The notes beneath the pieces were generated by a model, which was given only the letters and a program-made list of their open reading frames with translations, searched no databases and was not told the origin of the DNA. 64,000 nt of DNA from Escherichia coli (GTDB lineage Bacteria; Pseudomonadota; Gammaproteobacteria; Enterobacterales; Enterobacteriaceae), in NCBI RefSeq assembly GCF_044324785.1, contig NZ_CP172127.1; one strand, given 5' to 3'. Made by a program: the position numbers and the translations under genes. The first letter of the stretch is position 1. Every line of letters begins with the position of its first letter. This document shows, in pieces, positions 4,826 to 14,261 of the stretch.

Positions 4826-5041
4826 ATGTCAAATAAAATGACTGGTTTAGTAAAATGGTTTAACGCTGATAAAGGTTTCGGCTTTATTTCTCCTGTTGAT
4901 GGTAGTAAAGATGTGTTTGTGCATTTTTCTGCGATTCAGAATGATAATTATCGAACCTTATTTGAAGGTCAAAAGGTTACCTTCTCTATAGAGAGTGGTG
5001 CTAAAGGTCCTGCAGCAGCAAATGTCATCATTACTGATTAA
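4826..5041 (+). CDS. cspB: Cold-shock protein CspA family
   Basis: 71-aa [26 protein letters not shown]...; RNP1/RNP2 motifs; long AT-rich 5' leader. Confidence 0.95.
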
Positions 5042-5322
5042 AATTCATCGCTCGTCTGTATACGATAACGAAGAAGGCTGATGCCTGAGTAGAGATACGG
5101 ACAGAGTAGTGAATATTGGATCTCTTTAATAAAAAGTAAGGAGGTCCAATACATGAAACAATGGCTAGCATATTTGGCAAAATCTTAATCAGGAAAAGTA
5201 TGCTAACCATTGTGGTGAAGTGCAGGTTTGCTGCATGAATAGTTTTACAGCAGAAGCTAACTGCTGGCATGGCAAAACAAAGTGCGTAAGTGGATGACTC
5301 CCACAAAAAGCACCACAATCTC

Positions 5323-5794: not shown

Positions 5795-6010
5795 ATGAAA
5801 TCAATGGATAAGTTAACAACAGGTGTTGCCTATGGCACATCGGCGGGTAATGCTGGTTTCTGGGCATTGCAGTTACTCGATAAAGTAACTCCGTCACAGT
5901 GGGCTGCAATCGGTGTGCTGGGTAGCCTGGTTTTTGGCCTGCTGACGTATCTGACAAATCTTTATTTCAAGATTAAAGAAGACAGGCGTAAGGCTGCGAG
6001 AGGAGAGTAA
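5795..6010 (+). CDS. essQ: Pinholin, phage 21 S-type, dual-start motif
   Basis: [26 protein letters not shown]... 71 aa; Met1 and Met4 starts as in S21 holin/antiholin; two TM segments; SD GGGGTGAGG upstream. Confidence 0.85.
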
Positions 6011-6014
6011 TCCA

Positions 6015-6322
6015 ATGACTCAAGACTATGAACTGGTTGTGAAAGGAGTCCGTAATTTTGAGAATAAAGTTACGGTAACTGTAGCCTTACAGGACAAAGA
6101 ACGCTTTGACGGTGAAATTTTTGACCTGGATGTCGCCATGGACCGTGTTGAAGGAGCTGCGCTGGAGTTTTATGAGGCAGCAGCCAGAAGGAGCGTCCGG
6201 CAAGTCTTCCTGGAAGTAGCAGAAAAATTGTCAGAAAAAGTTGAGTCTTATCTGCAGCATCAGTACTCCTTTAAGATTGAAAATCCTGCCAATAAGCACG
6301 AGCGTCCTCATCATAAATATAT

Positions 6323-6326: not shown

Positions 6327-7350
<1,024 letters not shown>

Positions 7351-7713
7351 GGTAATATTAAATCGGAACATTTACATCGCGGAATGTAAAATTTAAATAA
7401 AAAGGACTCTTCCATGAGCCAAAATTCCTGAAATCTTAAGGGTAAGATAAAAGGTCTTAATCAGAATGACACGTTATTATTAATAAATAAAGCTATTCTT
7501 TCATTGCTGTGTTTTTCTTTACAAAAGTAATCCTTGCTATGGGTGGTTAATCATGCGTTAATGGTGTTCTGGTTTGTTACAAATTTATCTGAAGCAGTCA
7601 TTGTTATAATTTTATTATTTGTACCTCTTGAGATTTCCTTGTTGGTTTTTCTCTCTGATATTTTTTTTCGGACCATTCTGCCCAAGGGCTAATTTCTTCA
7701 AAAGGTAATAATT

Positions 7714-7926
7714 ATGTCTAACAAAATGACTGGTTTAGTGAAATGGTTTAACCCTGAAAAAGGTTTTGGTTTCATCACGCCGAAAGATGGCAGCAAAGAT
7801 GTGTTTGTCCATTTCTCAGCAATTCAGAGCAACGATTTCAAAACATTAACTGAGAATCAGGAAGTTGAATTTGGTATTGAGAACGGACCTAAAGGTCCTG
7901 CCGCTGTTCATGTAGTGGCGCTTTGA
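7714..7926 (+). CDS. cspI: Cold-shock protein CspA family
   Basis: 70-aa [26 protein letters not shown]...; long 5' leader. Confidence 0.95.
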
Positions 7927-8014
7927 GGTAGACAATATTACAAACCATATTCACTTTAGATGCCCGTGTTGTCATGGTTCCCAGTATAGAACATCATCTT
8001 TTGATGTTTCTGAC

Positions 8015-8125
8015 ATGAATCCTTTCGGGGCAAAATGTATCTTTTGTAAATCAATGATGATTACATTTGATAATATTTCACAATACTTAAATGCCAGCCG
8101 TCTGTCGTTGGATTTAAAAAAGTGA
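8015..8125 (+). CDS. Small Cys-containing ORF (possibly ynfN-like)
   Basis: Hand-translated MNPFGAKCIFCKSMMITFDNISQYLNASRLSLDLKK; in-frame upstream CPCCHG lacks canonical start; intrinsic terminator immediately downstream. Confidence 0.3.
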   Translation: MNPFGAKCIFCKSMMITFDNISQYLNASRLSLDLKK

Positions 8126-8132
8126 AAATGAA

Positions 8133-8153
8133 GGCTCCTTCGGGAGCTTTTTT
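8133..8153 (+). terminator. Intrinsic terminator
   Basis: Hairpin GGCTCC-TTCG-GGAGCT followed by T6. Confidence 0.45.
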
Positions 8154-8155
8154 GC

Positions 8156-8428
8156 TTGGTATCTATTCGATGGATACTCACATACTACGGTAACATCATG
8201 AAAAAAATCATAGTTTTTTTTAACTCTGAACCTGCAGTGGTAGTGCCAGCGATGACTGGAGTTAACACCATCATGCGTGAATATCCAAATGGCGAAAAAA
8301 CACACCTTACTGTAATGGCCGCAGGGTTTCCATCTCTGACCGGAGATCATAAAGTCATTTATGTAGCCGCGGATCGACATGTTACTTCAGAAGAAATTCT
8401 GGAAGCAGCAATAAGGCTCTTGAGTTGA
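8156..8428 (+). CDS. Hypothetical protein (unassigned moron ORF)
   Basis: 90-aa ORF; likely start at MKKIIVFF (8195, 77 aa); no family recognised. Confidence 0.4.
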   Translation: MVSIRWILTYYGNIMKKIIVFFNSEPAVVVPAMTGVNTIMREYPNGEKTHLTVMAAGFPSLTGDHKVIYVAADRHVTSEEILEAAIRLLS

Positions 8429-8596
8429 TTTGATGCTATTGTATTGATAATTCAGGAAAATTTTCTTTGTCTGTTTGTGTAAAATTTAGACTATCGTATG
8501 TTGATTATTGCGATGTTTCATCTTATCTTTTACACGTTTGCACCATATAATCGACTTACTGTGTAACTGGAAAGTCATAACAGACTAAAAGAGGAA

Positions 8597-8773
8597 ATGA
8601 TGAATATTGAAAACTTAAAAACAAAAGCAGAAGCAGATATTTCTGAATATATAACAAAAAAAATTATTGAACTTAAGAAAAAGACCGGGAAAGAAGTTAC
8701 CAGTATTCAGTTTACCGCACGGGAAAAAATGACGGGTCTTGAAAGCTATGATGTCAAGATTAATTTAATCTGA
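8597..8773 (+). CDS. gnsB: GnsA/GnsB family protein
   Basis: Hand-translated 58 aa MMNIENLKTKAEADISEYITKKIIELKKKTGKEVTSIQFTAREKMTGLESYDVKINLI; SD GAGG upstream. Confidence 0.8.
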   Translation: MMNIENLKTKAEADISEYITKKIIELKKKTGKEVTSIQFTAREKMTGLESYDVKINLI

Positions 8774-8924
8774 TGTATTCAATAATAAAATTTATCCATA
8801 AACCTCGTTTTTACGGGGTTTTGTTATATTTGAATGGTTCCGAATATCTAAATCACAATTGTTGATGGTTTTTATTAAACCAATGCAGTCCGGCTCAGGA
8901 GTGAGAGAAGCCGGACGTTATGGT

Positions 8925-10534: not shown

Positions 10535-10560
<26 letters not shown>
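10015..10560 (+). CDS. nu1: Terminase small subunit (lambda Nu1-like)
   Basis: 181 aa MEVNKKQLADIFGASIRTIQNWQEQGMPVLRGGGKGNEVLYD...; winged-HTH N-terminus. Confidence 0.95.

Positions 10561-14241
<3,681 letters not shown>

Positions 14242-14261
<20 letters not shown>

Follow-up and report, generated by a model that had tools for sequence, protein, structure and literature searches.

The open reading frame at 8156-8428 (+) of the 64,000-nt stretch of Escherichia coli DNA analysed here (contig NZ_CP172127.1, hereafter the window) is ynfN, a genuine gene of 76 codons that runs from the ATG at 8198 to the TGA at 8428 in a Qin-type lambdoid prophage. The gene is already known and named, and in this respect the finding is an ordinary one. 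Indeed, RefSeq places "protein YnfN" (WP_000720962.1, 231 nt, 76 aa) at exactly 8198-8428, in a genome that is 100% identical to the window over 7700-8800. The translation from ATG 8198 begins MKKIIVFFNSEPAVVV and is 76 aa long; at least 1,000 contigs carry exactly this sequence under the name "protein YnfN", and it matches PHROG 3425, a family of unknown function, over residues 1-76 of a 76-position profile (E = 7.2e-54). When the segment 7700-8800 was compared by megablast with complete E. coli genomes, 2,150 records matched, and for 1,502 the identity was at least 99%. The best 25 of these 2,150 records were 100% identical to the window, and the features annotated under the listed matches were cspI, ynfQ/ymcF, ynfR, ynfN and gnsB.

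A first, sequence-only reading of this stretch had described a frame of 77 to 90 aa that it could not assign to any family. The maximal frame is present as described, starting at a TTG and encoding 90 aa, and the start proposed at MKKIIVFF agrees with the RefSeq ynfN CDS at ATG 8198; the product from that start is 76 aa and not 77. The frame was not in fact unassigned, since it already had a name (ynfN, b1551 in K-12) and a place in PHROG 3425. To call it uncharacterised was nevertheless right, as neither YnfN nor any of the 32 family members matched a Pfam, NCBIfam or PADLOC family, and as ynfN still counts as uncharacterised in a 2024 y-ome survey of E. coli (PMC11551758). The features on which the following argument relies, with the evidence for each, are:

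7568-7953 (+): cspA-type thermoregulator, comprising the cold-shock mRNA leader and the cspI coding region (Rfam RF01766)
7714-7926 (+): cspI, cold-shock protein, 70 aa (Pfam CSD, E = 1.6e-31; RefSeq)
7937-8125 (+): ynfQ, YmcF-like cold-shock small protein, 62 aa, with a CxxC...CxxC pattern and an ATT start (RefSeq CDS from L001 2738-2926; Pfam YmcF-like on orthologs; sequence read directly)
8128-8193 (+): ynfR, small ORF of 21 aa over the terminator (RefSeq CDS)
8133-8153 (+): intrinsic terminator GGCUCC-UUCG-GGAGCU followed by U6 (RNA fold; covariation; terminator scan)
8198-8428 (+): ynfN CDS, 76 aa (RefSeq WP_000720962.1; PHROG 3425; common Met start; dN/dS; AlphaFold2)
8214-8221 (+): T8 homopolymer in codons V6-F7-F8 of ynfN (alignment of the window with K-12 Qin; K-12 sequence; 156-nt K-12 annotation)
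8600-8773 (+): gnsB, GnsA/GnsB family, 57 aa, next gene of the cassette (Pfam GnsAB_toxin, E = 3.3e-35; RefSeq)
8800-8831 (+): terminator-like hairpin and T-run closing the cassette after gnsB (scan: 9-bp stem with 4 G-C pairs, tail TGTTATATTT)

Conservation of the coding sequence and of its start

The YnfN family is small. Word-indexed and exhaustive HMM searches of 1.8 billion representatives recovered 44 clusters at 50% identity. The full-length proteins have, almost without exception, 72-76 aa and, besides metagenomes, their named sources are Escherichia and Citrobacter. Every full-length homolog begins at one and the same column of the alignment, with the pattern MKK/MKR/MSK-V-[IL]-V-F-F-N; F7 is invariant, and M1, F8, N9, G32, A57, D59, R60, E66 and A70 reach at least 90% conservation. 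The N-terminal extensions that gene callers give to homologs are not homologous to one another. Likewise, the DNA 5' of the ynfN ATG diverges among lineages, except for a short Shine-Dalgarno-like element, ACGG(U/G)A, found in most of the closer cassettes. In the window, where a ribosome-binding site had been named as something to look for, a weak ACGGUAA Shine-Dalgarno would serve the 8198 start (predicted duplex, -3.0 kcal/mol).

Two other products have a footing in the databases, the 51 aa from Met26 that K-12 and UniProt annotate and the 90 aa from the TTG at 8156 that many gene callers choose. A GGAG lies 10 nt 5' of Met26 and forms a stronger predicted duplex (-5.9 kcal/mol) than the site at 8198, and 89/90-aa forms stand as cluster representatives in the protein collection. 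It seems to us very improbable, however, that either is the real product. The K-12 call results from a frameshift (see below), and relatives have I, L, T, S, E or R in place of Met26. Residues 1-25, with the invariant F7 and the conserved M1, F8 and N9, are under purifying selection: against a relative of 93% identity, dN/dS (Nei-Gojobori) was 0.17 for codons 1-25 and 0.10 for codons 26-75, and against relatives of 76-80% identity it was 0.05-0.10, with synonymous sites near saturation. In the structural model the same residues form two strands and part of a third, with a pLDDT of about 94. As for the TTG extension, it overlaps ynfR and the terminator and shows no conservation. Judged by its homologs, the conserved product of this locus is the 76-aa protein from 8198, and neither the 90-aa TTG form nor the 51-aa K-12 form.

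That the frame might be a chance or shadow ORF, or a decaying pseudogene, would find some support in its weak Shine-Dalgarno, its position 3' of a terminator, the antisense ORF of like length at 8114-8380 and the frameshifted copy in K-12. We consider this practically negligible. The dN/dS values lie between 0.05 and 0.17 throughout, and among the genes for the 24 distinct homologous proteins checked, the ynfN frame is the sole one free of stops in all, whereas stops build up in every other frame (3-7 within the antisense ORF in diverged copies). Moreover, the 44 clusters keep a steady length of about 75 aa, the AlphaFold2 fold is confident, and the intact allele outnumbers the frameshifted one in phage sequences. 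The first reading was correct in seeing no shadow-frame origin. It had also named a reading frame without homologs or conservation in related prophages as what would undo the proposal; homologs were found and the frame is kept in them, and the ORF stands as a gene. On these conservation data, the alternative-start and the non-coding readings are both to be regarded as refuted.

The K-12 copy is frameshifted

K-12 YnfN (b1551, UniProt YNFN_ECOLI, prophage Qin) occupies the same locus, in the same order cspI-ynfQ-ynfR-ynfN-gnsB-ydfO-ynfO-nohA as in the window, and the K-12 protein is identical to residues 26-76 of the window YnfN. What separates the two is a single base. Alignment of window 8214-8221 with positions 1660-1670 of the K-12 locus (L011) shows that ynfN of MG1655 has lost one T from the run in codons 6-8, T8 having become T7. 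Because of this deletion, the K-12, UniProt and PHROG 4911 entries have 51 aa, starting from Met26. The window carries the intact T8 allele, with 76 aa, whereas K-12 MG1655 carries T7 and is annotated from Met26, with 51 aa. In exact-pattern scans of IMG/VR, the T8 form was present on 48 contigs and the T7 form on 8; in the protein collection the 51-aa entry, like the 76-aa one, stands for at least 1,000 contigs. According to the structural model, the 51-aa form would be without strands 1 and 2 and most of strand 3.

Since the K-12 allele is truncated, K-12 experiments on ynfN concern a fragment. An example is the ynfN ASKA clone, which was among the 114 hits of a HOCl screen (PMC8228696). The Keio and ASKA collections are presumably both among the resources built on the K-12 allele.

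A mobile cold-shock cassette in the late region of lambdoid prophages

Five reading frames, cspI, ynfQ, ynfR, ynfN and gnsB, make up a mobile cold-shock cassette in which ynfN is the fourth; the Rz lysis gene lies on one side of the insertion and the terminase genes on the other. The late region has the Qin-type order essD, ydfR, rrrQ, rzpQ, cspI, ynfQ, ynfR, ynfN, gnsB, ydfO, ynfO, nohA, and the order of the products RrrQ, RzpQ, CspI, YnfQ, YnfR, YnfN, GnsB, YdfO, YnfO and NohA is that of K-12 Qin, which dozens of prophage contigs from IMG/VR share. The gaps from cspI to ynfQ, ynfQ to ynfR and ynfR to ynfN are of 10, 2 and 4 nt, the stop codon of ynfR lying 4 nt 5' of the ynfN ATG.

To compare cassettes, we ran tblastn with the proteins of the window against 99 fetched loci. 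A csp gene, a YmcF-like gene and YnfN form a recurrent core down to about 60% YnfN identity, and GnsB comes next after YnfN in every cassette examined in which YnfN identity is at least 68%. The terminases found 3' of the cassette are of different types (GpA-type, TerL-type and the Nu1-like NohA). Lying as it does after Rz and before such varied terminases, the cassette has the behaviour of a mobile moron module. The isolated phages Tritos, PhiR42_1, 2H10, mEp460, HannyBb and PHB10 carry it as well, and ynfN has been described as a moron of the LF82 prophage Tritos (PMC9928086). The suggestion that the ORF was an uncharacterised moron is thus well founded: it is conserved, under purifying selection, and found in different lambdoid prophages between the genes for lysis and those for the terminase.

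The most distant homologs depart from this arrangement. In L016-18 and L097, YnfN homologs without csp or gns lie directly between lysis and terminase genes. In L013-15, the family member comes after an HSP20 gene; the setting is a cluster of stress genes on the chromosome that includes a Mn-catalase, and a GnsAB gene is 2.8 kb off; over L013 and L093/94, GnsB is found 1.6-2.8 kb from the YnfN homolog. In L002-L005, from metagenome assemblies, two YnfN paralogs (at about 5037-5279 and 6001-6228) flank a csp gene in an icd-adjacent island, one of 80 aa with 35% identity to the window YnfN and the other of 75 aa with 60%. Since some distant members have no csp gene, a cold-specific role cannot be a property of the whole family.

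The same distribution bears on the idea that YnfN serves the phage and not the lysogen, for example as a factor for anti-defence or superinfection exclusion that occupies the late-region moron slot, its linkage with csp being incidental. The family is almost entirely from prophages and phages, the csp-less homologs of L016-18 and L097 sit directly between lysis and terminase genes, and one distant member, P0089, adjoins a gene with an Acb2/Tad1-hairpin domain (L019). Nevertheless, we find this idea unlikely. ynfN is transcribed in lysogens and co-varies with cspI and not with late genes. YnfN and its neighbours gave no PADLOC match, although PADLOC covers defence and not anti-defence. Finally, the Acb2 neighbour comes from a single contig of 1.6 kb, on which the match of P0089 to the family is weak (E = 1.4e-4). 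On that contig (L019 812-1093 and 1258-1536), P0089, a weak family member of 92 aa, is found beside the Acb2/Tad1-hairpin gene, of anti-CBASS/anti-Thoeris type.

Several further observations concern the neighbourhood. The ATT start of ynfQ lies in a TATTAC context. This context recurs at the cspG/ymcF locus and in one cassette of Citrobacter type, suggesting that a cold-shock operon has conserved a non-canonical start. ynfR is confined to E. coli-lineage cassettes, with YnfN identity of at least 93% (tblastn, 99 loci), whereas conservation of the terminator that it covers reaches far beyond these; this gives ynfR the look of a recently overprinted ORF or of an element akin to a leader peptide. 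An out-of-frame ORF at 7028-7300 (+), inside rzpQ (6853-7350), is the Rz1-type lipoprotein gene rzoQ, which is annotated in K-12 and unannotated in the RefSeq record identical over 7700-8800. Downstream, the window has uninterrupted ORFs of 641 aa (10535-12460) and 533 aa (12660-14261), unlike K-12 Qin and the matched RefSeq record, in which the terminase large subunit is a pseudogene with an internal stop. We take these to be the sizes of the lambda gpA terminase and portal protein. The prophage of the window may be less decayed than Qin.

A conserved terminator and the expression of ynfN

The intrinsic terminator and the gnsB gene that had been read on either side of the ORF are both there. 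The terminator has its stem at 8133-8138/8143-8148, a UUCG loop and a U-tract at 8148-8153; it begins 7 nt past the ynfQ stop codon and lies inside ynfR (8128-8193). The 88-nt RNA from 8118 to 8205 folds with -23.3 kcal/mol (z = -3.1). Every cassette with YnfN identity of about 68% or higher keeps this element, U-run included, between the YmcF-like gene and ynfN, and in each case the YmcF-like gene has its stop codon 5-7 nt from the stem. The stem shows compensatory changes in diverged cassettes, from GGCUCC:GGAGCC to GGCCUC:GGGGCC and GGCCCC:GGGGCC, and the same element is present at the cspG-ymcF locus.

Upstream, the RF01766 cspA thermoregulator was matched at 7568-7953 over the full length of the model, with 112.8 bits for a gathering score of 78 (E = 1.8e-29). 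The cspI transcript therefore starts about 145 nt 5' of cspI, and it has a leader of the cspA type. On the + strand between 8000 and 8198 a crude consensus promoter scan returned no sigma-70-like site, a kind of search that could miss a promoter of non-consensus type in the 45 nt by which terminator and ATG are separated. From this absence of a predicted promoter, together with co-regulation in published RNA-seq, we infer that ynfN is on the cspI RNA. Indeed, the inductions of cspI, ynfQ and ynfN by AZT are near-identical (6.5-, 5.9- and 5.8-fold), and so is their dependence on SspA after AZT (38-, 42- and 51-fold) (PMC11228462); the three genes also rise jointly in long-term stationary phase (PMC7406224). 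These published co-induction data fit a co-transcription of cspI, ynfQ and ynfN. Furthermore, YnfR-SPA, the product of the ORF that spans the terminator, is strongly induced by cold shock (PMC6001520), and lysogens of LF82 transcribe ynfN from their prophage Tritos (PMC9928086). For ynfN, b1551 or YnfN itself, the literature searched gave no direct cold-shock measurement.

Taken from the arrangement of these elements, the most likely mode of expression of ynfN is read-through of the cold-shock cspI transcript. ynfN would have no promoter of its own and would be made from this transcript when RNA polymerase passes the terminator. Read-through would be favoured by ribosomes that, on ending ynfQ or while translating ynfR, cover the 5' side of the stem, by melting of the hairpin through Csp proteins, or by both. 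Csp-family proteins have been described as antiterminators (PMC9765468). In the same work, the one published test that was found, overproduction of CspI stabilised terminated and read-through SgrS transcripts alike and did not shift their ratio, and for CspI itself the antitermination step is weakly supported. Once the RNA is made, translation of ynfN would proceed from the weak ACGGUAA Shine-Dalgarno, possibly coupled to termination of ynfR 4 nt upstream.

Two other elements were noticed on either side of ynfN. A second hairpin of 9 bp, GGUAUCUAU-UCG-AUGGAUACU, occupies 8158-8178, between the terminator and the ynfN Shine-Dalgarno region, and some diverged cassettes have hairpins of different sequence at a similar position. 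Reading the sequence 3' of ynfN, we saw at 8546-8551 a TATAAT that fits the consensus exactly, though its -35 element is poor; it may give gnsB a promoter of its own.

Predicted structure and role of YnfN

Structure prediction, one of the checks proposed at the outset, gave a confident AlphaFold2 model (pLDDT 89.8, pTM 0.76, from a 32-sequence alignment). The predicted strands cover residues 2-7, 14-18, 24-28, 34-45 and 51-58 and are followed by a C-terminal helix at 64-75; the SLTGD loop is the part of lowest confidence. In this model the N-terminus is a buried strand and not a signal peptide. By eye, the hydrophobic run is merely IIVFF, followed by N-S-E, too short for a signal peptide. A structure search with the model returned no significant neighbour in the PDB or BFVD, and a sequence-profile search of the PDB gave nothing significant. 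By structure or by sequence, no relatives of YnfN were detected outside its small enterobacterial/phage family.

From its context, our best guess is that YnfN is a small non-enzymatic binding protein, which would act alongside CspI and GnsB when the lysogen is exposed to cold or to another stress. One can go further and propose that YnfN founds a structurally new family of small proteins, that it is a stress (cold) effector gated by ribosome- or Csp-dependent read-through of the terminator, and that K-12-based resources, having tested only the 51-aa fragment, would have missed its phenotype. Taken as a whole, this proposal is rather doubtful.

A possible partnership with GnsB

Among the alternatives, the most attractive is that YnfN could be an antitoxin or neutralising partner of GnsB, by analogy with the proposed YmcE-GnsA pair. 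On either side of the slot that ynfN occupies, the cassette and the chromosomal cspG-ymcF-ymcE-gnsA cluster are homologous. Indeed, K-12 1051461-1052240 (L012) has about 74% DNA identity with window 7700-8800 over csp, ymcF and the terminator, and about 73% over gns; the match to the cassette runs as far as the terminator and resumes at gnsA, and the ynfN slot is taken by an unrelated 143 nt. YmcE resembles YnfN in its slot, after csp, ymcF and the conserved terminator and before gns, and in its annotated length of 76 aa. Thus ynfN fills the place directly 5' of a gns gene that ymcE has in the paralogous cassette. Moreover, ymcE-gnsA is listed in the literature as a type II toxin-antitoxin pair, the Pfam family is named GnsAB_toxin, and gnsB follows ynfN in all the cassettes examined above the 68% identity level.

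However, we judge this partnership to be distinctly improbable. YnfN has no protein similarity to YmcE (BLASTP, nothing at E <= 100), and the middle 143 nt of the cspG locus, the body of ymcE, have no DNA match to ynfN (blastn, word size 7). While ymcE overlaps both its neighbour genes, ynfN overlaps neither; it lies about 170 nt from gnsB, with what may be a separate -10 element in between, unlike typical toxin-antitoxin pairs. The linkage of ynfN and gnsB is neither obligate nor tight, as YnfN homologs of L002-5, L016-18 and L095-L099 have no detectable GnsB nearby, and GnsA occurs without YnfN. Furthermore, overexpression of GnsA and GnsB does not kill but rescues growth, with a rise in unsaturated fatty acids (bioRxiv 10.1101/2024.03.27.586906). 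We also considered ymcE as a decayed ynfN, MAFFT having seemed to align the FFN and LT(G) motifs of the two; we rejected this, as BLASTP and sensitive blastn found no similarity.

Significance

As a discovery ynfN has little value, the gene being named, annotated and already in the E. coli y-ome. Three points appear useful: the conserved product has 76 aa and the reference copy of K-12 is a frameshifted remnant; a covarying terminator 5' of ynfN suggests conditional read-through from the cspI transcript; and the confidently predicted fold of YnfN has no neighbour in the PDB or BFVD. If CspI, the YmcF-like protein, YnfN and GnsB do work as a unit, they would constitute a multi-part module for fitness at low temperature supplied by the prophage.

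Comparison with other lambdoid morons

The bor gene of lambda exemplifies the morons found in the late region of lambdoid phages between Rz and the terminase genes. YnfN is like such morons in that it is encoded by a small accessory gene in the same slot, dispensable for the phage life cycle and transcribed in the lysogen. It is unrelated to lambda bor in sequence, and it has no lipobox and, by eye, no signal peptide. Finally, ynfN is not an autonomous single unit with its own promoter and terminator, but part of a multi-gene cassette under cold-shock regulation.
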